Assembly (NCBI GenBank): GCA_051870995.1
Contig: JBJECK010000036.1
Location: 4,742-68,741 of the forward strand
Source: Paludibacteraceae bacterium
GTDB taxonomy: Bacteria > Bacteroidota > Bacteroidia > Bacteroidales > Paludibacteraceae
Length of the DNA: 64,000 nucleotides
Direction of reading: 5' to 3'
The notes under the pieces are model-generated. The model searched no databases. It worked only from the letters and a program-made list of their open reading frames with translations, and was not told the origin of the DNA. Below are positions 36,109 through 48,331 of the stretch, piece after piece. Made by a program: the position numbers and the translations under genes. Each line of letters opens with the position of its first letter. Positions within the stretch are counted from its first letter, which is position 1.

Positions 36109-37349
36109 ATACGATAGAGGAAGCCTTGGAGAACATCCGCGCAGGCAAATTTGTAATAGTAGTGGACGATGAAGACCGCGAGAACGAAGGCGATTTCATC
36201 ATTGCGGCGGAGAAAATAACGCCGGAGAAAGTGAATTTCATGCTCAAGCACGGTCGCGGTGTGCTCTGTGCACCAGTGACGGAAGAGCGCTGCGCGCAAC
36301 TCGGGCTGATGCACCAAGTGGCTAACAACACGTCGATGCTCGGTACACCTTTTACCGTTACGGTGGACAAATTGGAAGGGTGCACCACGGGCGTGAGCGC
36401 TGCCGACCGCGCAGCCACCATTCTGGCGTTGGCAGACCCTTCGTCCAAGCCTGAGACATTCGGCAGACCCGGGCATATCAACCCGCTTTATGCGCGTGCA
36501 GGAGGCGTTTTGCAGCGCGCGGGACATACCGAAGCGGCAGTGGATTTAGCACGTTTGGCGGGCTTAAAACCGGCAGCGGCACTCATAGAGATTATGAATC
36601 CGGACGGCACAATGGCGCGCATGCCCCAGCTCCAACAAGTGGCGCAAGAATACGGACTCAAACTGATCACCATAAAAGACCTGATTGCCTTCCGCCTAAG
36701 ACAAAGCAACAACGAACAAACGTCCGTTGCGCCAACAACACAGACGCTGCAGGACGTACTGATAGAACGCGGAGAAACGGTGTTCTTGCCCACCGAATAC
36801 GGTGAATTTCAGCTGACTCCGTTCCGCGATTTGAGCAACGGTTTGGAGCACGTGGCGCTGGTGAAAGGCGAATGGAAAGAAGGCGAACCGGTCTTGTGCC
36901 GCGTCCATTCCTGCTGTCTGACGGGCGATGTATTCGGCTCTATGCGTTGCGAATGCGGCGAGCAGTTGCACCGCGCTATGCGCATGATAGAGAAAGAAGG
37001 GCGCGGTATTGTTGTATATATGAACCAAGAAGGACGAGGCATCGGCTTGATGAACAAGATACGTGCCTACAAACTGCAAGAACAGGGCGATGATACCGTT
37101 GAGGCGAACGTACACTTGGGCTTCAAACCTGACGAACGCGACTATGGCGTAGGCGCGCAGATACTCAAGGAGATGGGGGCAACCAAGTTGCGATTAATGA
37201 CCAATAACCCCGTGAAGCGTGTTGGTCTGGAAAGCTACGGGATTGAAATTGTGGAAAATATCCCTATCGAGATACAGCCGAATCCGTACAACGAGCGCTA
37301 TATGCGCACCAAGAAAGAACGGATGCACCACGATTTGCACCTCGTCTGA
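36102..37349 (+). CDS. ribBA: Bifunctional 3,4-dihydroxy-2-butanone-4-phosphate synthase / GTP cyclohydrolase II
   Basis: [12 protein letters not shown] and [14 protein letters not shown] mark Rib[22 protein letters not shown] and NQEGRGIGL mark RibA. Confidence 0.95.
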
Positions 37350-37469
37350 CCCTTATGTTGAGCGTCCTAACAAGATTTGGCACGATAATTGAACAATAGA
37401 TTGTGTATGCGCTTCGGAAGACATAGCGCATATCGGCAACCACTCATTAACTATTAAAACTTTTGTATT

Positions 37470-38801
37470 ATGAAACGTTTGGTATCTTTTCTATTTGCAT
37501 TGCTGCTCGTAGGGGGCATGACAATGCGGGCAGACGAAACGATAACCGTTTCTGCCAACAGCTCAGACATTTCCGACGGGCTGGATCTCAAAGTGGTAGC
37601 TAAGTTGTTCGCGCAAGCCAAAGACTTGGAAGAATTTGAGACGCTACTCAATAACCCCGACTCCGCTTTCTGCAATTTAGACCTCAACGGAGACGGAATG
37701 GTAGATTATATCCGCGTGGTGGAGACCGGAGAAAGCAACAAGCGGCTGGTGCTGCTCCAAGCCATCTTGGCGAAGGACATCTATCAGGATGTAGCAACTA
37801 TCTACGTAGAGAAATCCGCTGAAGAGAAAGTGTCAGTGCAGGTAGTCGGCGATGAGTATATCTACGGCAAGAACTATATCATCGAGCCCGTCTATGTTTA
37901 TCGCCCGATAATCTATGATTGGTTCTGGGGTCCGACATGGTATGCTTGGTCATCGCCGTGGTATTGGGGATATTATCCGTCTTGGTGGTATGCGCATTCA
38001 CTGTGGGCATATGATGCCTATTGGCACCACTGCTATACATTCCATCACCGCCACCCATATTGCAGTTTCCATTACGCACGCGAGCCGCGCCCGGCTATCC
38101 GTGATATGCGCGCAGGAATCAGCCGGAGGGACTACGCTGCTGCCCACCCCACCCGCTCGTTCGAGCATCGTAACGCAGGGGTAAACAATGTACGAGACAT
38201 GCGCTCTACGCGCACTCAGGTGGCGGCAACACGCAACAGCGCAGCGGGTGTATCTACCCGTCAGGCAGCAACGGGAGCGACACGGTCTTCCGTACACCAA
38301 TCATCTGATGGACAAGCAACGGCAAGCACGCGCAGCACGGCTGCAAGCCGCACCTTCGGAAGCCAAAATACGGCAGCGGCACGCACCAGCACAGCTACCC
38401 GTACAAGTGCCACGACACGTACTGCTTCTGCTGCAACAACACGGACAGGTGCAGCTTCAACAACGACACGCACGCCGGCTTATACAACTACTACAACACG
38501 CACAGCGGCTACAGGTAGCAGCACGCGCACAGCGGCTTCCACGCCGACACGGGTGAACAATTCAGCGGCAACAACTACCACCCGCAGCAATGTCAGTTCC
38601 TCGACGCATACCCGTAGTACATACAACGGCAGTTATAATGCGCCTGCAACGACACGCAGCAGCTACGATAGCGGTAGCACACGTAGCACCGGCAGCTACA
38701 ACCATGGCGGCAGTTACGGCGGTAGCACACGCAGCAGTGGCAGTTATGGTGGAGGTAGCACACGTGGAGGTGGATATAGTGGCGGAAGTACACGCAGGTA
38801 A
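37470..38801 (+). CDS. Secreted protein with an EF-hand-like loop, an extreme Trp/Tyr/His block and a long R/S/T/A/G/Y low-complexity tail
   Basis: The signal peptide is MKRLVSFLFALLLVGGMTMRA and the DxNxDGxxD loop is DLNGDGMVDY. The aromatic block is IYDWFWGPTWYAWSSPWYWGYYPSWWYAHSLWAYDAYWHHCYTFHHRHPY. A tail of about 220 aa made of TR/STR/SYGG units follows. Confidence 0.6.
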   Translation: MKRLVSFLFALLLVGGMTMRADETITVSANSSDISDGLDLKVVAKLFAQAKDLEEFETLLNNPDSAFCNLDLNGDGMVDYIRVVETGESNKRLVLLQAILAKDIYQDVATIYVEKSAEEKVSVQVVGDEYIYGKNYIIEPVYVYRPIIYDWFWGPTWYAWSSPWYWGYYPSWWYAHSLWAYDAYWHHCYTFHHRHPYCSFHYAREPRPAIRDMRAGISRRDYAAAHPTRSFEHRNAGVNNVRDMRSTRTQVAATRNSAAGVSTRQAATGATRSSVHQSSDGQATASTRSTAASRTFGSQNTAAARTSTATRTSATTRTASAATTRTGAASTTTRTPAYTTTTTRTAATGSSTRTAASTPTRVNNSAATTTTRSNVSSSTHTRSTYNGSYNAPATTRSSYDSGSTRSTGSYNHGGSYGGSTRSSGSYGGGSTRGGGYSGGSTRR

Positions 38802-38825
38802 TATGTATCTATACGAAAGAATAAA

Positions 38826-38858
38826 AAGAGGGTGTAGCGTTTATGCCCTCTTTTTTTG
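38826..38858 (+). terminator. Intrinsic terminator
   Basis: The stem aagaggg/ccctctt is followed by a T7 run. Confidence 0.6.
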
Positions 38859-38902
38859 TGTGTGATTTGCGCCTCAAAATTGTATATGTAAAAAAAAAGT
38901 TG

Positions 38903-38910
38903 TACCTTTG
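38903..38910 (+). promoter_or_regulatory. -7 promoter box (TAccTTTG)
   Basis: tacctttg lies 23 nt upstream of the ATG at 38933. Confidence 0.5.
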
Positions 38911-38932
38911 CGAATTGTTTAGCTGAAAATAT

Positions 38933-40249
38933 ATGTTTGAACTGATAGCGGTAATAGCGAGTTTTGTAGTACAGAGCAACAAAGAGGTTTCTGCAGAAGG
39001 TATACTGCCGGAAAACTCCACAGCGAGTTACCATTGTTCGTACAAGAAAGGACAACTGACGGCAGGCAATACGGCGACGTTAACACTCTCGGGGTGGGAA
39101 AACATAGATATTCAAAGTGTCAAACTATCGATGAAATCAAACAAAGCCGCAGGAGCAGGGTCCTTGGAAATGAGAGTGGACGATAAGCCAGTTTGGGCTA
39201 TCTTAGATAGCGGCTTCGACAATTGGTACGGTTCGTACTCTTCTGATTATGTACCTATTGTGCATTCGTTTTCTCCCGCTGTGCGCACTACCGACGGAGC
39301 TATTACAATTACCATCTCGGCGTCTCAAAACTCGCTGTATATTGCCGGTTACGAGATTGCTTATACCAAAGCGGCACCACGGCCATACGAAGTTTCTCTC
39401 ATGGCAGGGACGAGCACTCCCGCTCAGGTGCTTACCGAATCTGTTGCGGGGTCCGGCGTCCTCCTGCCTTCGCTCCCCGACGAAGTGGGCTGGTGGTTTA
39501 TCGGCTGGAGCGAGTCTCCCGTCAACCGAACAGCCCAAAAGCCCGATATACTGCCTGCCAGCGAACGTTTTTATCCGCATTCGGACACTCGTCTTTGGGC
39601 GGTTTATACAGATTATATCGTTTCTGTTTCCGACATGCGCCAGTGCGTGGATTTACAATCAGATTATTACATAATGGCGTATCCTATACTGGACAAGGCT
39701 TTTGCCGGTCCGGTGGAAAACGCCACCCTGCCCGTGGCAGATATCCGACTGACTCACGTTGAGGGAGAAGGCTGGTATGAATGCCAATTCGGTCAAAATA
39801 ACGACTGGGTGTACTATATTGATTTCGCTGCCGATAGTACGGCGTCTATTGTCCATGCGGGAACAGGCACCCACGTGGGCTACAATGCCACTCACAATGC
39901 CCTTTCGCGCGACAACGTGCGGTGGCGATATCGGCTATTGGCTGATACTACAGTGGCTTTCTATACCCCCGATAACGACAGCACGGTGGCAACTCTTTGG
40001 GTGACGACACCGGGCCTCGGCGAGTGGGAGGGCAAACTATTGCCTGGGATAAACGCCCGCAAGTTGCAGAAGCAGACTCTCCTCTATAAAGCCGCATTGC
40101 AACCTGATTTTGTATATTATACTTCTTACCCGAACGGTACGGACATTGTCCGTGTGCGCGAAGACAACGCCGCTGAAACGGTGATGCCGTTCGGTATATA
40201 TGAACTCTATATCCGTGACGGAAAAAAGAAAATAAAGTTGCGTAATTGA
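38933..40249 (+). CDS. Hypothetical protein, probably exported, co-transcribed with DPP-IV
   Basis: 438-aa ORF with a promoter box just upstream and its stop 1 nt before the DPP-IV start. A GWWFIGWSESP segment resembles the Listeria-Bacteroides repeat GYxFxGW. I cannot make a firm family call. Confidence 0.5.
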   Translation: MFELIAVIASFVVQSNKEVSAEGILPENSTASYHCSYKKGQLTAGNTATLTLSGWENIDIQSVKLSMKSNKAAGAGSLEMRVDDKPVWAILDSGFDNWYGSYSSDYVPIVHSFSPAVRTTDGAITITISASQNSLYIAGYEIAYTKAAPRPYEVSLMAGTSTPAQVLTESVAGSGVLLPSLPDEVGWWFIGWSESPVNRTAQKPDILPASERFYPHSDTRLWAVYTDYIVSVSDMRQCVDLQSDYYIMAYPILDKAFAGPVENATLPVADIRLTHVEGEGWYECQFGQNNDWVYYIDFAADSTASIVHAGTGTHVGYNATHNALSRDNVRWRYRLLADTTVAFYTPDNDSTVATLWVTTPGLGEWEGKLLPGINARKLQKQTLLYKAALQPDFVYYTSYPNGTDIVRVREDNAAETVMPFGIYELYIRDGKKKIKLRN

Positions 40250-40250
40250 T

Positions 40251-42308
40251 ATGAAGACTTTCAGATTTGTTTCGACGATGTGCTTGCTGGCAGTGTCTAT
40301 GTGGCTGCATGCCGACTTGCTCTCCGACCTGTTGGACGGCGACTACAACGCACATACCATGACTACCGAGCAGCAGGACAGCGTGTTGGGGAACGTGCCG
40401 CAAGGGCGTTTCCGCTTGGAATACGAAAACAAGCAGACACTCTTCCGACATTCGTTCCTCGCCGACTATTATATCGTGGACAACCAAAAACATACGCGTA
40501 CGCACCTGAGCGACACCCTTGTACGCGACGCACTGCTTTCGCCGGACGGGCGCTATATTGCCTTCGTCAAGGGCAACAACCTCTACCTGCACAAGTTGGA
40601 TTTCGGCACGGAGGTTGCCATCACAACAGACGACAATTCGCAGATATTCAATGGATTGACCGACTGGCTCTACGAGGAAGAGTTCGGCGTTACAGCCCTG
40701 TTTGCCTTCTCGCCGGACTCCAAGCAACTGGCTTTCGTCCGTTTCGACGAGACTGAAGTGCCAACCTTCGAATGGCAGGAGTTTTTGGGCGGCACCTACC
40801 CCGCCAAAGACTCGCTTCGTTATCCGAAAGCAGGCGAGCCCAATGCCAAAGTGAGCGTATGCGTCTATGATATCAAGACCAAGACCATACGCACGATGCA
40901 GACGCACGATGCAGACGAGGATGTCTATCTGCCCCGCTTGCGCTGGACCAATCCGCAGCAGCATGGCAAAGAAATGAGGCCTGCCGATTTGGCGGTGCTC
41001 AAACTCAACCGAGACCAAACCAAAATGGAAGTGCTGCTTTGCAACCCGCGCTCCACGGTGACGCGCTTGCTCTACAAAGAGGAGAGCCGCGACTATTTCA
41101 TTGACTACGAACTATTCGACCAATGGCGCTGGTTGTCCGACAACCGTATGATTATCCTCAGCGAGAAAAGCGGCTGGCGGGCAACGTATCTCTATTCCGC
41201 ACAAGGCATACAGCAACAGCAGCTGACCAAAGACGGCGTAGATATTACGGCACTCTACGGTTTCAACGAAGCTACGCAAACCCTCTTCTACCAACAGGCT
41301 ACATCTCCTATAACGCGGCAGGGCATGGCGATGAATATCAAGCGGGGAACGGTCGTACCACTTACCGACAACGACGGAACGCACGACCTTACTTTCTCCC
41401 ATGATTTCCGCCAAATGATTGATTGCTACCAGAGCCTCAACACACCCAACCGCTATTCCCTCTATTCGCTCGCGAAAGACGCTGCGCCCAAGTTGCAGAG
41501 TGTGCTCTTGGACAACAGCGACCTTACCCGGCAGTGGGCTGCACTCAACTTGCCCGAGAAAGAGTTCTTCTCTTTCGCTACTGAGCACGGCGACCGGCTC
41601 AACGGCTATATACTCAAGCCCAAGCATCTACAAGCAAACCGGCGCTACCCCGTCGTGCAGCTGCAGTATTCCGGCCCGCAAAGCCAACGCGTGCTCAACC
41701 GTTGGCGCAAACGATGGGAGTATTATCTCGCCGACCAAGGCTATGTCGTCGTTTGTGTGGACGGGCGCGGTACCGACTGCCGCGGGCGCGCTTTCCGCAA
41801 TGCCTCGTATATGCAACTCGGCCTCGTTGAGGCGCAAGACCAGATTGCCGCCGCCCGATATGTACAAACACTCCCGTTTGTGGACGATCAGCGCCTATGC
41901 ATATGCGGCTGGAGCTACGGAGGATTCCAGACTATCATGACTATGTCCCAACCCGATAGTCCCTTCCGTTGTGGCATTGCTATTGCACCTGTTACCGACT
42001 GGAGGTTCTACGACACCGCCTATGCCGAGCGATATATGCGACGACCGCAGGTGAACGAAGCAGGCTATCAAGCGGCAGATCTCGTCGCGCGGGCGGAGCA
42101 GCTCAACGGGCAACTGCTCATCGTTCATGGGCTCGCGGACGACAACGTACATGCGCAGAATACGCTCCTTTATGTGGACGCTCTCGTACAAGCAGGAAAG
42201 CAGTTCGACATGCAGATTTACCCCGACGACAACCACTTCCTAAAGAAGCGCGGCAACTACCTGCACCTCCATCAGAGCCTGATGCGATTCCTGAGAAACA
42301 ACCTGTAA
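40251..42308 (+). CDS. Dipeptidyl-peptidase IV (S9B serine peptidase)
   Basis: A signal peptide and beta-propeller N-terminal half are followed by the catalytic GWSYGG, a later Asp and the His of DDNVH. Confidence 0.9.
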   Translation: MKTFRFVSTMCLLAVSMWLHADLLSDLLDGDYNAHTMTTEQQDSVLGNVPQGRFRLEYENKQTLFRHSFLADYYIVDNQKHTRTHLSDTLVRDALLSPDGRYIAFVKGNNLYLHKLDFGTEVAITTDDNSQIFNGLTDWLYEEEFGVTALFAFSPDSKQLAFVRFDETEVPTFEWQEFLGGTYPAKDSLRYPKAGEPNAKVSVCVYDIKTKTIRTMQTHDADEDVYLPRLRWTNPQQHGKEMRPADLAVLKLNRDQTKMEVLLCNPRSTVTRLLYKEESRDYFIDYELFDQWRWLSDNRMIILSEKSGWRATYLYSAQGIQQQQLTKDGVDITALYGFNEATQTLFYQQATSPITRQGMAMNIKRGTVVPLTDNDGTHDLTFSHDFRQMIDCYQSLNTPNRYSLYSLAKDAAPKLQSVLLDNSDLTRQWAALNLPEKEFFSFATEHGDRLNGYILKPKHLQANRRYPVVQLQYSGPQSQRVLNRWRKRWEYYLADQGYVVVCVDGRGTDCRGRAFRNASYMQLGLVEAQDQIAAARYVQTLPFVDDQRLCICGWSYGGFQTIMTMSQPDSPFRCGIAIAPVTDWRFYDTAYAERYMRRPQVNEAGYQAADLVARAEQLNGQLLIVHGLADDNVHAQNTLLYVDALVQAGKQFDMQIYPDDNHFLKKRGNYLHLHQSLMRFLRNNL

Positions 42309-42355
42309 TAAACGAATAAACCTCTTATAGACTCATTTTAATACAAAACAATATC

Positions 42356-43606
42356 ATGTCAAAACAACGTAACATCTTACCCATCGTGGTAATGTTTTTG
42401 CTCTTCTTTATGATTGCCTTCGTAACCAACTTTGCCGGTTCCATGGGCGTCATTGTTAAGAATCAGTTCGGTGCAAGCAATGCCATGGCGCAGCTGGGCA
42501 CATTGGCGAACTTTATCGCATATGCCGTGTTGGGCGTACCCGCAGGCATCATCCTCAAGCGCAAAGGCTACAAGTTCACCTCCTTGCTGGCTGTCTCTGT
42601 CGGCTTCGTCGGAGTCGCTATCCAGTGGCTCAGCGGATATGCCGAGAGCTTCGGAGTCTATGTGCTCGGCGCTTTTGTCGCAGGGCTCAGTATGTGCTTG
42701 CTCAATATAGTGGTCAATCCCATGCTCAATACACTTGGAGGAGGAGGAAAAAGGGGCAACCAGCTGGTGCAGTTCGGTGGATCATGCAACTCTATCGGAG
42801 GCACAATCGCACCCGTGCTCCTCGGCTACCTCATCGGAGGAGAAGCCGCTACTGCACAAGTTAAAGACGCCGCACCCGCTATGATTATTGCATTGGTCAT
42901 CTTCCTGCTCGCTTTCCTCATTATCGCGCTCACCAATATACCAGAGCCGCATATACAGACTCCCGAGCAACGAGCTGTCGAACGAGCTAACAAGGACAAA
43001 TACAGCCCGCTCTCCTTCCGACATTTCGTCTTGGGAGCACTCGCCATCTTCTTCTATGTCGGTGTCGAAGTAGGTATTCCTAATACAGCCAATCTCTATA
43101 TGTCCGGCAATCCCAGCGTAGGACCCGCTATTGCAGGCACCGTCATCGCTGTCTACTGGCTGCTCATGATGGTCGGACGACTTCTCGGAGGAGCTATCGG
43201 AGGAGAAGTCTCTAGCAAAACCATGCTCGCTACCGTCGCATCACTCGGAATCCTACTCCTCCTCGGCGTCATGCTCCTACCCGAAACATGCGTCGTCTCC
43301 TTCAGCGGTACACAACTACCCGTCAGCATGATACTTATGGCACTCTGCGGACTATGCACATCCGTCATGTGGGGAAGCATTTTCAACCTCTCCGCTGAAG
43401 GACTCGGCAAATACACACCAGCTGCCAGCGGCATCTTCATGGCGCTCGTTTGCGGGGGGGGGATCATGCCTTTCCTCCAGAACCTACTCGCAGACCACAC
43501 CTCCTACCTCTTCTCATACATCGTACCGGTACTATCCCTCGCATACATACTCTTCTACGCTCTCGTCGGCAGCAAAAACGTTAACACAAATATACCTACC
43601 GAATAA
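42356..43606 (+). CDS. Sugar MFS transporter, FucP/GluP (FHS) type
   Basis: 416 aa and 12 TM segments. The sequence FLLFFMIAFVTNFAGSMGVIVKNQFG...FIAYAVLGVPAGIILKRKGYK is typical of fucose or glucose/galactose:H+ symporters. Confidence 0.8.
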   Translation: MSKQRNILPIVVMFLLFFMIAFVTNFAGSMGVIVKNQFGASNAMAQLGTLANFIAYAVLGVPAGIILKRKGYKFTSLLAVSVGFVGVAIQWLSGYAESFGVYVLGAFVAGLSMCLLNIVVNPMLNTLGGGGKRGNQLVQFGGSCNSIGGTIAPVLLGYLIGGEAATAQVKDAAPAMIIALVIFLLAFLIIALTNIPEPHIQTPEQRAVERANKDKYSPLSFRHFVLGALAIFFYVGVEVGIPNTANLYMSGNPSVGPAIAGTVIAVYWLLMMVGRLLGGAIGGEVSSKTMLATVASLGILLLLGVMLLPETCVVSFSGTQLPVSMILMALCGLCTSVMWGSIFNLSAEGLGKYTPAASGIFMALVCGGGIMPFLQNLLADHTSYLFSYIVPVLSLAYILFYALVGSKNVNTNIPTE

Positions 43607-43754
43607 CAATACAAACCTGCTAAGTACCAAAACTGCCAACAAAACGGCATCACAACAAAGAGTACTGTAACGAAATACACCTCGCAGAGCAGGATGCATT
43701 AGTGAGGTGTATTAAATAGAATAAGTCAGGCTATCAGCAACTATTTAACTATCG

Positions 43755-44159
43755 TCAGCACTGGACGAAGAACGGATCGAAGAGCTTGCCCAACGCCGAG
43801 CGAACACCATCGTTGATAACGAAACTCTGCACCAACGAGATATTGTCACCCTCTACGCCGCAACGGCTCGACAGAAAGATAGGATAGCTCTCCGCTTTCG
43901 AGGCATCATTCGCCCAATGCATCGGCTGCAAATTCATAATATCGTTGATTGCCTCTTCCGGTACATGGTGACGCTCCAATAGAGAAAGAGGACAAATATG
44001 GTCTATCACCCAGCCGAAATTACTGCTCCTATCGCCGTACTTATCGCGAGTTATCCACGCACCACACGCATCCTTGCGGAATTTGGCAGGGTCATACCCC
44101 TTTACTACATGTGCTTTCTCCCATACCACTTCGATAATGTCTTTGTCAAACTCTTTCAT
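43755..44159 (-). CDS. Small stand-alone HNH endonuclease-family protein
   Basis: 134 aa from the ATG at 44159. The HNH core is GWVIDHICPLS...NLQPMHWANN-like. Confidence 0.6.
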   Translation of the reverse strand: MKEFDKDIIEVVWEKAHVVKGYDPAKFRKDACGAWITRDKYGDRSSNFGWVIDHICPLSLLERHHVPEEAINDIMNLQPMHWANDASKAESYPIFLSSRCGVEGDNISLVQSFVINDGVRSALGKLFDPFFVQC

Positions 44160-44323
44160 AATACTTTCTTTTTTAAGGTTAATACTTATATTGTGTGGTC
44201 TTCGTTGGCAAAGATAATCATTTAGGAGCAAATATGCAATAGCTACACATTGGATTTTGTCAAATTATTCACTATCTGTTATTCCCATGTTGCATTTTTA
44301 ATTTATCTTTCTGTTCTGCAACA

Positions 44324-44353
44324 TAAAAATGCCCCCGAAAGCGGCAGGGGCAT
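44324..44353 (-). terminator. Intrinsic terminator of fcl
   Basis: The - strand reads atgcccc-tgccgctttcg-ggggcat followed by ttttt. Confidence 0.6.
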
Positions 44354-44368
44354 CAAATATCCTATGGC

Positions 44369-45310
44369 TTATCTCTCCGCACGCATGGGGTTGTGGAGGA
44401 AGTCGGCATAGGCGAGGCGAATGCCGTCTTCGAGTTCGGTTTTGTATGTCCAGCCCAAAGCCGTTGCTTTGGATACATCCAAGAGTTTGCAGGGTGTGCC
44501 GTTGGGGCGCGTGGTATCCCAGAGGATTTGCCCTTCGTAGCCAATGACCTTGGCGACGAGTTCCGTCAGTTGCTTGATAGTCAGTTCTTTGCCTGTTCCT
44601 GCATTGACGGTCTCGTTGCCGGAGTAGTGGCTCATCAAGAATACACAGAGGTTGGCAAGGTCGTCCACATAGAGGAACTCGCGCAAGGGTGAGCCGTCGC
44701 CCCAACAAGTAACCGACTCGGCGTGCGCCTCCTTCGCCTCGTGGAAGCGGCGGATGAGGGCAGGGAGTACGTGGGAGTGCTCGGGGTGGTAGTTGTCGTT
44801 GGGTCCGTAGAGGTTGGTGGGCATGACGGAGATATAGTCAGTACCGTACTGGCGGTTGAGGAACTCGCAGTATTTGAGTCCGGAAATCTTAGCCAAGGCA
44901 TACGCCTCGTTGGTCTTCTCCAACTCTCCGGTGAGGAGGCAACTCTCCGTCATAGGCTGCGGGGCAAGGCGCGGATAGATACAAGACGAGCCAAGGAACT
45001 CCAATTTCTTGCAGCCGTTCTGCCACGCGGCGTGGATGACGTTCATTTCGAGTATCATGTTGTCGTACATAAAGTCGGCGAGGGCGTTTTGGTTGGCAAC
45101 AATGCCCCCCACTTTCGCCGCGGCGAGGAAGACGTACTCCGGCTTCTCCTGCGCGAAAAACGCCTCTACCGCATCCTGACGGCAAAGGTCCAACTCCTTG
45201 TGCGTGCGCGTGATGATATTGGTGTAGCCCTGACGCTGCAACTCGCGCACAATAGCAGAGCCCACCATTCCACGGTGACCCGCTACGTATATCTTGCTTT
45301 GTTTCTCCAC
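44369..45310 (-). CDS. fcl: GDP-L-fucose synthase (GDP-4-keto-6-deoxy-D-mannose 3,5-epimerase/4-reductase)
   Basis: IYVAGHRGMVGSAIVREL...VFLAAAKVGGI...SSCIYP...YALAKI are present. The start is GTG at 45310. Confidence 0.95.
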   Translation of the reverse strand: MEKQSKIYVAGHRGMVGSAIVRELQRQGYTNIITRTHKELDLCRQDAVEAFFAQEKPEYVFLAAAKVGGIVANQNALADFMYDNMILEMNVIHAAWQNGCKKLEFLGSSCIYPRLAPQPMTESCLLTGELEKTNEAYALAKISGLKYCEFLNRQYGTDYISVMPTNLYGPNDNYHPEHSHVLPALIRRFHEAKEAHAESVTCWGDGSPLREFLYVDDLANLCVFLMSHYSGNETVNAGTGKELTIKQLTELVAKVIGYEGQILWDTTRPNGTPCKLLDVSKATALGWTYKTELEDGIRLAYADFLHNPMRAER

Positions 45311-45324
45311 AATAACAGTTAAAT

Positions 45325-45347
45325 AGTTAATAATTAATAGTTAATAT
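45325..45347 (-). promoter_or_regulatory. 23-nt A/T box atattaactattaattattaact (second copy), 14 nt upstream of the fcl GTG start
   Basis: The reverse complement of 45325..45347 is identical to 7165..7187. Confidence 0.8.
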
Positions 45348-45356
45348 TTCATTGCG

Positions 45357-45499
45357 GCACTCGGTATCGGTGCGGTATTGTCCCGGTATCGGTTCGTGAA
45401 TCACCCACTAATCACATACTAATCACCCACTCTTGGCTCGGCATCGTCTCGGTATCGATTCGGTAATCACCCGATAATCACCCGATAATCACCCGATAA
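45357..45499. repeat. 11-nt-period degenerate tandem array (13 units) in the gmd-fcl spacer
   Basis: The units read gcactcggtat cggtgcggtat tgtcccggtat cggttcgtgaa tcacccactaa tcacatactaa tcacccactct tggctcggcat cgtctcggtat cgattcggtaa, then tcacccgataa x3. There is no register slip. Confidence 0.9.
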
Positions 45500-45601
45500 A
45501 GACAGGTAAGGGACTCGGGGAAGAATAGAAGGGAGTCAGATGCCGCTGCGCGGTGGGACGTGCAGGAGCAGCGTCCCTCCATCGAGGTAACCGGCAGATA
45601 C

Positions 45602-46705
45602 CTATTTGACAATTCCTTTCTCCAAGTACTCCGCCAAGTTGGTGCGCGCCTGCTCTGCGGCGTGGTCGGCTGCGACCTTGCGCATATCCAACTGCACCAT
45701 GAGGCGTACCAACTGCTCGAACGTGGTTTTGCCCGGGTTCCATCCCAACTCCTTGCGCGCCTTGGCGGGGTCTCCCCAGAGGTTGACCACATCGGTTGGG
45801 CGGTAGAAGTCGGGAGAGACCTCGACAAGGGTCTTACCTACAAGGTGGGCAGGTCCTGCGGTGCAGACACCCTTCTCGTTCTGTCCCTCGCCATCGAAAC
45901 GGAGCGTGATGCCGACCTCACGGAATGCGAGGTCGCAGAACTCGCGCACGGAGTGCTGCACGCCGGTGGCGATGACAAAGTCCTCGGGGGTGTCGTGCTG
46001 GAGGATGAGCCACATGCACTCGACATAGTCCTTGGCATAACCCCAGTCGCGCAGCGAAGAAAGGTTGCCGAGGTAGAGTTTGTCCTGCTTGCCCTGCGCG
46101 ATACGCGCCGCCGCGAGGGTGATTTTGCGGGTGACAAATGTCTCGCCGCGGCGCTCGGACTCGTGGTTGAAGAGGATGCCGGAGCAGCAGAACATGTTGT
46201 ACGCCTCGCGGTACTCCTTGACAATCCAGTAGCCGTAGAGTTTGGCGACGGCGTATGGCGAATAGGGGTGGAAAGGCGTGTTCTCATTCTGCGGGACTTC
46301 CTCGACCTTGCCGTAGAGTTCGGACGTGGACGCCTGGTAGATGCGGCAGGTGTCGGTCAGACCGCATGCGCGCACCGCCTCCAAGATACGCAAAACGCCG
46401 GTAGCATCAATATTCGCCGTATATTCAGGGGAGTCGAAACTAACTTGCACGTGGGATTATGCCGCAAGGTTGTAGATCTCGTCGGGACGCACCTTGCCGA
46501 TGACTTGGATGAGTCCCATGGAATCGGAGAGGTCGCCGTAGTGGAGGTGGAAATGAGGTTGCCCCTCGAGGTGGGCGATGCGCTCGCGGTAGTCCACCGA
46601 CGAACGGCGGATGATGCCGTGGACATCGTATCCCTTGTCCAACAGGAACTCGCTCAGGTAAGAGCCGTCTTGTCCTGTTACTCCCGTGATTAAAGCTGTC
46701 TTCAT
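45602..46705 (-). pseudogene. gmd: GDP-mannose 4,6-dehydratase interrupted by a single in-frame TAA (codon 83)
   Basis: The two co-linear, in-frame ORFs 46457..46705 and 45602..46450 together read ...[22 protein letters not shown].... Gmd orthologues have NLAAQSHV here, so CAA has become TAA at 46457..46459. The rest of the gene is intact ([25 protein letters not shown]). Confidence 0.85.
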
Positions 46706-46730
46706 ATCCTATTGGTTAAATAATTTATTG

Positions 46731-46738
46731 CAAAGGTA
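46731..46738 (-). promoter_or_regulatory. -7 promoter box (TAccTTTG) for gmd
   Basis: caaaggta on the + strand lies 26 nt upstream of the ATG at 46705. Confidence 0.5.
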
Positions 46739-46882
46739 CAAATAAAAAACAACATGTACAAATAAATGTTGAAAATCCTCTTTTATCGGGTATCTATGAA
46801 CAAAAACCGATAGTGGATGGATATATGTGCGTAAAATGTAAACAAAAAAGTAATTTATTTGCATATATCAATAAAAAAGCAG

Positions 46883-46890
46883 TATCTTTG
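46883..46890 (+). promoter_or_regulatory. Orphan -7 promoter box (TAtcTTTG) with no ORF behind it
   Basis: tatctttg is preceded by an A-rich tract. The next credible gene starts 680 nt downstream at 47570. Confidence 0.4.
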
Positions 46891-47569
46891 CACCGCGAAA
46901 CCCACATTTGGAGTCTGTCTCATGGTGCTAAAGTTTTTTTTGGGCACAGTGGAGTAATCAATCGGTGGGGATTGCAGACATTTTGAAAAAGGCGTTTGTT
47001 GAAGCGCTGTTCTGACTCTTGAAATCTCGCAAATTTCTAATTACCTCAGAGCATCCGCAACGATGAATGTCCGTGGGATATAAGTATCTATCATGTCCCC
47101 CTTGGATTGTTGTGTCCGTTTTTTTGGGGATGTGGTTATTTATATCTGCGTGGGCTTCGCGTTGTCGTTCTTAGGTAATGGGCAATGCGAGAGCCTCAAG
47201 AGTGGGAACGACATCAAGAGAACTCCCACGCTTTTTTTATGTCTGATTGTGTCATTGCTGATATGGGTGAATAGTGCCCTATATTCGGAAGGCGCATATT
47301 TGTTTTACTAATCATACGGGATAGGAGTTCGCCTGTACAATAAAGCATTGTAGGTATAACTTGTACGTTAGTAAGAACTTCATCATGTTGTTATTTGCCG
47401 GATTTATTGGCAAGGATTGCGTTATTAGCGGGAGAGAGTGTTCTTCCGCCGGATGGTTTGTATGTATTTTCGTACAGGTAAAACGGTGTGAGTCTCAAAA
47501 TGATATGGAGGAACTCGAAAATCCAAAAAAGAGTAGAGGAATAATCTAATTACAAAACAAAACATTACA

Positions 47570-48331
47570 ATGAAAAAAGTTTCATTTATTCTGTGTTCTC
47601 TTCTTTGCGCCATGAGTGTATCGGCTCAGTTATCAACAGGCAAGGTGAACTCAACCATTATTCCGCGCACAGGGAACCGTCCGCAAGCAGGCGATATGGG
47701 TTTCTATATCGGTGCATCGGTAAGCCAGGTTCTGGACCTAATCAACTTCAACAACTCCCACGCTGACAAGGCGACGGGTTACGGTGAGTGGTACTGGGCA
47801 TTGCCTGTACTGAATCTCAAGTACTATGCGACCGACAACTGGGAGACCCGTCTCGGTTTTGAATTCTCGTGCTACTCGGAGACCAACAAGACGAGCATGG
47901 ACGGCGATACGTACAAGACAGCCACCAACTGCAATTTCACGCGTCTGCTTCCCGGTGCGGCATACCACTTCAACACCAACAATATCTTAGATGTATATTT
48001 GGGTGCACAAATTCCTATCGGATGGAATATCAACAGCGAGAAGACAAGCGGTCCGGACATGACCAAGAAGACGACTGAAAACGCCTTTGTTATCGGTGCC
48101 GGAATATTCGGCGGTTTGCAGGTATTCATCGCGGACCTGCCTTTTGCCATCGGTGTAGAGTTGGGCTATTCGGGAAAAGCCACCTTCGGCGGTGCGCCAA
48201 ATACCAAATACACGACCAACGGCGACACCGGCAACACAGAAGAAGGCAACATGAATACAAAGGCGACACGTGCTTCGGGTACATGGGGTGCGGATGCTGC
48301 TATCACGTTCTCTTATTATTTCCGCAAGTAA
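47570..48331 (+). CDS. Outer-membrane beta-barrel (porin-like) protein
   Basis: The signal peptide is MKKVSFILCSLLCAMSVSAQ. Alternating strands and a C-terminal ...ITFSYYFRK fit a beta-barrel. Confidence 0.7.
   Translation: MKKVSFILCSLLCAMSVSAQLSTGKVNSTIIPRTGNRPQAGDMGFYIGASVSQVLDLINFNNSHADKATGYGEWYWALPVLNLKYYATDNWETRLGFEFSCYSETNKTSMDGDTYKTATNCNFTRLLPGAAYHFNTNNILDVYLGAQIPIGWNINSEKTSGPDMTKKTTENAFVIGAGIFGGLQVFIADLPFAIGVELGYSGKATFGGAPNTKYTTNGDTGNTEEGNMNTKATRASGTWGADAAITFSYYFRK

Follow-up and report, generated by a model that had tools for sequence, protein, structure and literature searches.

In Bacteroides fragilis, GDP-L-fucose is provided by two routes: de novo synthesis by gmd-fcl and salvage by Fkp (Coyne et al. 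2005, cited in PMC8698959). According to PMC8698959, the GDP-fucose of Bacteroidales feeds capsules and a general O-glycan, and a delta-gmd-fcl delta-fkp double mutant has a truncated O-glycan and is outcompeted in mice. The window, i.e. the whole stretch of 64,000 nucleotides that was analysed, carries the same two-gene route (Gmd, then Fcl) with gmd and fcl adjacent, like B. fragilis, the species in which this route has been studied best among Bacteroidales. As assembled, its gmd is interrupted by one in-frame stop. This stop is probably a recent loss-of-function nonsense allele of a single gmd, as judged from comparison of sequences.

The gmd frame lies on the minus strand, from an ATG at 46705 to a terminal TAG at 45604..45602 (Table 1). 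The locus is gmd by descent, and a complete Gmd is not encoded as assembled: no single uninterrupted frame was found for the whole enzyme. When the internal TAA is read through, the product has 367 amino acids and matches TIGR01472 with 509.8 bits (cut-off 415) over positions 1-341 of the 342 of the profile. This product aligns over its full length with E. coli Gmd (1DB3, E=8e-137), and all motifs are kept (GVTGQDG, 8-14; ASTSE, 125-129; YAVAK, 151-155; NHESERRG, 180-187). The C-terminal ORF keeps the catalytic STSE and YxxxK; the nucleotide-binding start is absent from it. A first-pass annotation of the window had stated that one TAA splits gmd at a conserved Gln. The stop was found at 46459..46457, codon 83 of the minus-strand frame, and the pieces of 82 and 282 amino acids that it had named are both present in the list of ORFs. 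Its description of the two halves as otherwise undamaged agrees with the full TIGR01472 profile and with the presence of all motifs on read-through. Exact look-ups in the public protein collection found neither the read-through Gmd nor a piece of 82, 282 or 257 amino acids. Pattern scans of metagenomes around codon 83, including one with degenerate positions, gave no match.

Table 1. Features of the gmd-fcl region and its surroundings (positions are those of the window)
Feature	Position	Strand	Characteristics
gmd (GDP-mannose 4,6-dehydratase) frame	45602..46705	-	367 codons + stop; broken at codon 83
In-frame TAA, codon 83 of gmd	46457..46459	-	Replaces the conserved Gln of NLAAQSHV
N-terminal gmd ORF, 82 codons	46460..46705 (stop 46457-46459)	-	Start of the Rossmann fold, including NADP-binding GxxGxxG
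C-terminal gmd ORF, 282 codons	45602..46450	-	Possible GTG start (codon 86)
Antisense ORF, 377 aa	45560-46693	+	Across all of gmd; shadow ORF
fcl (GDP-L-fucose synthase), 313 aa	44369..45310	-	No internal stop; NF047922, PF01370
gmd-fcl spacer	45311..45601	-	11-nt and 66-nt tandem repeats; public assemblies of the species break here
TAccTTTG box	46731..46738	-	Bacteroidetes -7 consensus TAnnTTTG; 26 nt upstream of the gmd ATG
Segment absent in strains from five other runs, 1293 nt	45668..46960		gmd codons 1-346, promoter box, 255 nt upstream (part of a gene-less region)
MFS sugar transporter ("FucP-type" in the first-pass annotation)	42356..43606	+	PF07690; not assignable to FucP

The antisense ORF that spans gmd is open only in GC3-rich alleles (the window, L094, L096 and L003) and is interrupted in other relatives. 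It was rejected as a real gene and is considered a shadow ORF. A gene caller might pick this ORF instead of the broken gmd.

The fcl protein matches NF047922 with 475.8 bits (cut-off 500; profile positions 2-305 of 308; E=6.5e-143) and PF01370 with 211 bits. It is 97-98% identical to the proteins encoded by fcl genes found beside an intact gmd in relatives. The gene had been described as intact, and it is indeed open and full-length. The promoter box, also given as undamaged, is present. The window contains 44 TAnnTTTG motifs for 32.75 expected, which is no enrichment; therefore, only the position of the box supports a role as promoter.

The two genes are adjacent in 78 of the 95 relative loci. 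A GC-rich hairpin (GGGACG...CGTCCC) that is not followed by a T-run is found directly past the gmd stop (window 45527-45601). In the deletion-allele strains described below, 9 nt (CGGTGGGGA) take the place of this 75-nt stretch (45527-45601). On the other side of gmd, the Rfam DUF805b RNA motif (RF02914) was found at 47505-47539 on the plus strand (37.6 bits, gathering score 35.6); it sits just upstream of a gene encoding a 253-aa outer-membrane protein at 47570. The gmd-fcl cassette (44369-46713) has 93-94% DNA identity to the locus L094 (GCA_965317055.1), where it is located after purH-purD-folD. For the genes flanking it in L094, this genome offers no match, or one of just 69%. The GC content of the cassette is 56-59% and its GC3 is 74-78%, versus 49.7% GC for the genome. 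These characteristics suggest either a horizontal exchange of the cassette or a very strong codon bias.

Codon 83 encodes Gln (CAA or CAG) in nine same-genus relatives, in the three closest public sequences and in PDB 7KF3, and Met in E. coli and in more distant Bacteroidales; every relative examined has either Gln or Met. The surrounding motif is NLGAMSHV in E. coli and NLGAQSHV in 7KF3. The alignments thus agree with the initial statement that Bacteroides-type Gmd has Q and E. coli has M at this position. No internal stop was found in the gmd of the 33 relatives with a gmd match or in the 95 relative loci that were fetched; the stop thus stands as an exception within the family, not as one of its features. 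A TAA that seemed to lie inside gmd in two genomes of other families (G029 and G039) was rejected: the alignment had run past the end of the gene, and the TAA is its natural C-terminal stop.

The closest public gmd genes (L094, GCA_965317055.1; L096; L097) have 91-94% DNA identity to that of the window and are all intact. The dN/dS ratio between the window gmd and these three genes is 0.046-0.050, and it is 0.048-0.053 among the intact ones. Private substitutions number 21 in the window gmd, 17 in L094 and 18 in L096. Besides the stop, three private amino acid changes were identified in the window (H51, D271, L339), and the load is similar in neighbouring lineages. Since no signal of relaxed constraint is found in dN/dS, the stop is either very recent, relative to a private divergence of about 2%, or not real. 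This is in line with the proposal made from the sequence alone that the lesion is recent or a sequencing error, the dN/dS being the same as that of intact relatives.

The same proposal described a single step from CAA to TAA. The window reads GCA TAA at codons 82 and 83, the three nearest genes read GCG CAG, and more distant relatives read GCA CAA. A CAA intermediate is plausible according to these distant relatives, but it was not observed and the nearest genes have CAG. A one-step change from CAA to TAA thus needs an unobserved CAA intermediate. Four substitutions private to the window are found in 20 nt near codon 83. This clustering is marginal (permutation P ~0.05), and similar clusters are found in other lineages.

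The assembly comprises 1.93 Mb in 38 contigs with 300 N; it is 97% complete with 0% contamination, and the window belongs to a 97-kb contig. The closest public gmd loci are all carried by MAGs labelled Paludibacteraceae, Bacteroidales or Candidatus Cryptobacteroides, obtained from ruminant, chicken and other gut samples. The genome is therefore treated as a MAG from an uncultured, small-genome member of the Bacteroidales of the gut or rumen. Its NCBI label is Paludibacteraceae; we infer a Cryptobacteroides-like genus placement.

A reassignment of TAA to an amino acid in this organism would make the interruption only apparent. Nothing beyond the one gmd codon favours it. TAA terminates 602 of the 1142 ORFs of at least 300 codons and is the main true stop here. 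Among the 39 tRNAs found by ARAGORN, all ordinary, none has a stop-reading anticodon and none has the anticodon UUA; no gene other than gmd was found to contain a TAA within its frame. No credence is given to this reassignment. Both an alternative genetic code and a suppressor tRNA are ruled out by the usage of TAA as a stop and by the tRNA set.

The whole genome was scanned for single in-frame stops that have at least 50 codons on each side and lie in the frame with the best coding potential of the six. Of 88 matches, 87 are gene boundaries: either a start codon comes next or unrelated conserved proteins abut (adk/obg, rpsI/rpsB, ffh/folD). Only gmd has a conserved domain across the stop. As a control by homology, the ORFs of ~340 kb of a same-genus genome were compared with this genome (167 non-overlapping segments, 62,785 aligned amino acids). 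The stop in gmd is the sole internal stop, and no frameshift was found in the 167 segments. Pseudogenes are not abundant in this genome, and its assembly is clean.

These counts bear on the main rival of a true nonsense allele, i.e. an error of consensus or assembly. According to this explanation, the true codon in the cells is CAA, and T appears at 46459 either through a sequencing error at low coverage or through a misresolved bubble in a metagenome with several Bacteroidales whose gmd genes are nearly identical. It is judged unlikely, although it keeps a real share of the probability. The genome resembles a metagenome draft (38 contigs, 300 N) whose close relatives are all MAGs. The gene shows no decay besides the stop, which fits an error as well as a very recent mutation. 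Moreover, the public assemblies of the species break on both sides of gmd, a gene that is highly conserved between co-resident Bacteroidales. Against an error, no other internal stop or frameshift appears in the 62,785 aligned residues and none in the genome-wide scan. Besides, de Bruijn assemblers invent no k-mers, which would place the T in at least some reads.

Even if the stop is real, some active enzyme could be made if it were leaky or bypassed. UAA could be read through by tRNA-Gln(UUG), or translation could re-initiate at the GTG of codon 86, the pieces then assembling. A tRNA-Gln(UUG) is encoded by the genome, and read-through by it would restore the native Gln; the GTG lies 6 nt past the stop; and fcl and the remainder of gmd are fully preserved. 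Such a bypass is nevertheless very improbable. A read-through signal, a suppressor tRNA and a recoding element were all looked for and none was found. The TAA is followed by T, an ordinary stop context here (165 of the 602 true TAA stops), and the preservation of gmd is equally explained by the recency of the lesion. Basal read-through of UAA in bacteria is about 1e-4 to 1e-3. We know of no split Gmd.

Broken gmd genes are also found in other lineages. The search with the 82-aa protein retrieved a contig (L149:337-726; ENA ERZ27298491 k141_610678) on which the gmd of an unrelated Bacteroidales has a TAA at the same codon 83. It encodes an 82-aa protein whose N-terminus is 84% identical, and the frame continues past the stop. 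The 5.8-billion-protein collection includes many thousands of gmd, so a single recurrence of this nonsense codon is compatible with chance; given this database size, the second TAA at codon 83 is probably a coincidence. In another lineage, gmd lies in a GT2-GT2-gmd-fcl-manC locus and has, on at least six contigs, a +1 frameshift at codon 85 (AGCCAT to AGCCCAT; L151 and L152:2501-3590, Logan SRR33526785 and SRR33526980). In the sister allele P0189, the frameshift is -1 and falls at codon 84.

Non-homologous tails are present on 74 of the best 120 short N-terminal gmd fragments from the database. Short, frameshifted or chimeric pieces of gmd are common in metagenome assemblies. Both points count in favour of an error in the window. 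The break points of the 74 disrupted fragments extend over codons 73-130, and the fragments were picked by length, which forces the break points near codons 80-100. The second TAA was therefore not taken as evidence of a mutational hot spot at codon 83. On two short metagenome contigs (L095:1-60, ENA ERZ28639938; L150, ENA ERZ1767605, coverage 0.84), one limit of the homology to gmd falls between codons 79 and 80, next to unrelated sequence. Their foreign parts match neither each other nor this genome. These contigs are probably chimeras formed at a highly conserved stretch.

Contigs of conspecific strains were located via the exact MFS protein (12 Logan contigs) and via close variants of the outer-membrane protein gene (a dozen more). 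In their flanks, these contigs share 98.7-100% identity with the window. One of them (L128, run SRR30616841) is an independent assembly that is 100.000% identical over 36356-45041 and ends inside fcl; the contig structure is thus reproducible up to fcl. Codon 83 is covered by none of the conspecific contigs found: either the assembly breaks in the spacer or gmd is deleted.

The deletion was found on five contigs (L135, L136, L138, L141 and L142) from five runs (SRR30758342, SRR30758339, DRR843054, DRR848875 and DRR734671), whose flanks are 96.8-98.7% identical to the window. At the junction, the spacer repeats are followed by the last 66 nt of gmd (45602-45667), then by the sequence corresponding to window 46961 onward. 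An 11-nt sequence, ATCGGTGGGGA, is found on both sides of the 66-nt gmd remnant in these strains. The presence of this 3' remnant indicates a deletion in those strains rather than a gain in the strain of the window. At the level of the genus, 3 of 24 species have neither gmd nor fcl (completeness 84-90%). Since gmd is deleted outright in conspecific strains and absent elsewhere in the genus, it is dispensable and the locus is variable, so a nonsense allele is unsurprising. The deletion in conspecific strains likewise argues against an error, a null allele being biologically unsurprising here. The first-pass annotation had considered that the lesion may be tolerated, which these strains support.

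In strains of the species in which the deletion is found, fcl is open: one copy is complete (313 aa, L127) and five partial copies have no stop. The dN/dS of fcl is low (0.033); erosion of the partner gene is not yet visible, which counts against a real nonsense allele. Between the window and other strains, the dS of fcl is 0.21-0.31, versus 0.012-0.02 for the adjacent peptidase and transporter genes. As this value far exceeds that of the flanking genes, the HNH-fcl-gmd segment is considered a divergent, recombined allele. An allele replacement by recombination at HNH-fcl is thus indicated by the divergence pattern. The HNH-fcl segment (43655-45428) differs by ~3% from L127 and L129-L134, and the genes on its left (36356-43660) differ by ~0.9%. 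The change in divergence is sharp, at ~43655-43660. On two other contigs (L125 and L126, runs DRR843054 and SRR30858920), a type I restriction-modification cassette (hsdM, a small ORF, hsdS, a 767-aa ORF and hsdR) follows the MFS gene, to the right of window 43660; the window has the HNH islet and fcl at this place.

Surface-glycan genes of Bacteroidales are often phase-variable. The lesion had been likened to an on/off switch in surface glycosylation, and the locus does vary between strains (deletion allele, divergent fcl allele, type I restriction-modification cassette). A programmed and reversible switch of surface fucosylation is nonetheless hardly credible. Neither a homopolymer nor a short tandem repeat is found at codon 83 (46440-46480), and the inverted repeats by the promoter are limited to two weak pairs (14 nt at 86%). 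A point nonsense mutation reverts only at the rate of base substitution, and the deletion, which is the other null allele, cannot revert. The likeness to a switch was consequently abandoned, for want of a repeat tract and of convincing inverted repeats at the promoter. On the sequences compared, the variation is best described as a between-strain polymorphism of the gmd locus, not as a programmed switch.

Selection, for example by phages or by host antibodies directed against fucosylated glycans, might keep the species polymorphic for fucosylation. This would be an on/off variation of the population, based on recombination and devoid of salvage. The recurrence of gmd null alleles would fit this proposal: a nonsense mutation here, a 1.3-kb deletion in five runs and a replacement by a divergent fcl-gmd. 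As fcl is retained, the function could then return by recombination. This proposal is regarded as improbable.

A recent nonsense allele, the preferred reading, would leave the cell devoid of GDP-L-fucose only if no other route exists. A protein search of the whole genome identified gmd as the sole copy, the next match being an unrelated SDR (27 bits). The search for a second gmd advised at the outset returned no other gmd. With a single broken gmd in a genome that is 97% complete, de novo synthesis of GDP-fucose should be off; the earlier prediction to this effect, made for the case in which the stop is real, would thus stand. A ManC-like guanylyltransferase gene is present. The Fkp family (PF07959) gave no match in this genome (97% complete) or in any of 41 genomes of its genus, and the B. 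thetaiotaomicron control scored above the cut-off. The cell as assembled should thus make GDP-mannose, should not convert it and should have no fucose salvage.

A salvage route had been suggested on the grounds of a FucP-type permease gene lying 2 kb from gmd. Neither element of this suggestion was supported: PF07959 was not detected in the genomes just listed, and the permease is not assignable to FucP. This transporter scores 73.5 bits with fucP (cut-off 280.4) and 69.1 with the other FucP model (cut-off 427) [TIGR00885 / PRK10133]. Its best matches are gluP (140.7 bits, cut-off 202.55) and NagP (119.3 bits), both below cut-off. It is a neighbour of gmd in none of the 95 relative loci. A GT11 fucosyltransferase was found in 6 of 24 relatives of the genus and not, by the same search, in this genome. 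The search for GT10 is uninformative, its control being silent, and the O-glycan fucosyltransferase of Bacteroidetes belongs to GT2, so that a search by family cannot single it out.

The sequence of events that best accounts for these data would be as follows. The Gln codon 83 (presumably CAA) would have become TAA, and translation would end after 82 residues that include only the start of the NADP-binding fold. A product restarted at the GTG of codon 86 would have no such start. From what is known of the extended-SDR fold, no active Gmd would be expected. With neither a second gmd nor Fkp, GDP-L-fucose would not be made, though fcl and the ManC-like gene are intact. The species would tolerate this loss, as suggested by the independent 1.3-kb deletion of gmd and its promoter elsewhere. 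The locus would thus show a gene-loss polymorphism through at least two different lesions, without reversibility. It looks like an ordinary pseudogene or gene-loss polymorphism: the loss of a pathway and not a switch. These results imply that fucosylation is not needed for the persistence of the species.

A real stop would be a further natural null allele of gmd, and it would suggest that this genus can do without fucosylation or is even burdened by it. Several natural strains of this uncultured gut lineage, which is related to B. fragilis and devoid of salvage, appear to live without gmd. For annotation, gmd should be given as a pseudogene, and no salvage of fucose should be deduced from the neighbouring transporter. 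In metabolic reconstructions of this MAG, GDP-fucose synthesis should provisionally be considered absent. The locus would be of modest interest for population genetics if the nonsense and deletion alleles are kept by selection.

Compared with known systems, the motifs of the E. coli enzyme (1DB3; extended SDR) are conserved over the full length: GxxGxxG, STSE, YxxxK and NHES(x)RRG. Unlike that of E. coli Gmd, the frame in the window is interrupted after residue 82. Unlike in B. fragilis, no Fkp was found in this genome or genus, hence no back-up route. Unlike in the B. fragilis mutants, the pathway is broken naturally, by a stop here and by a deletion in other strains. Like ordinary variable glycan loci, this one includes a divergent allele derived by recombination, and some strains carry a restriction-modification cassette there. 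Like ordinary within-species pseudogenes of surface glycans, it combines one nonsense change with a deletion allele elsewhere, and it differs from them in nothing of kind.
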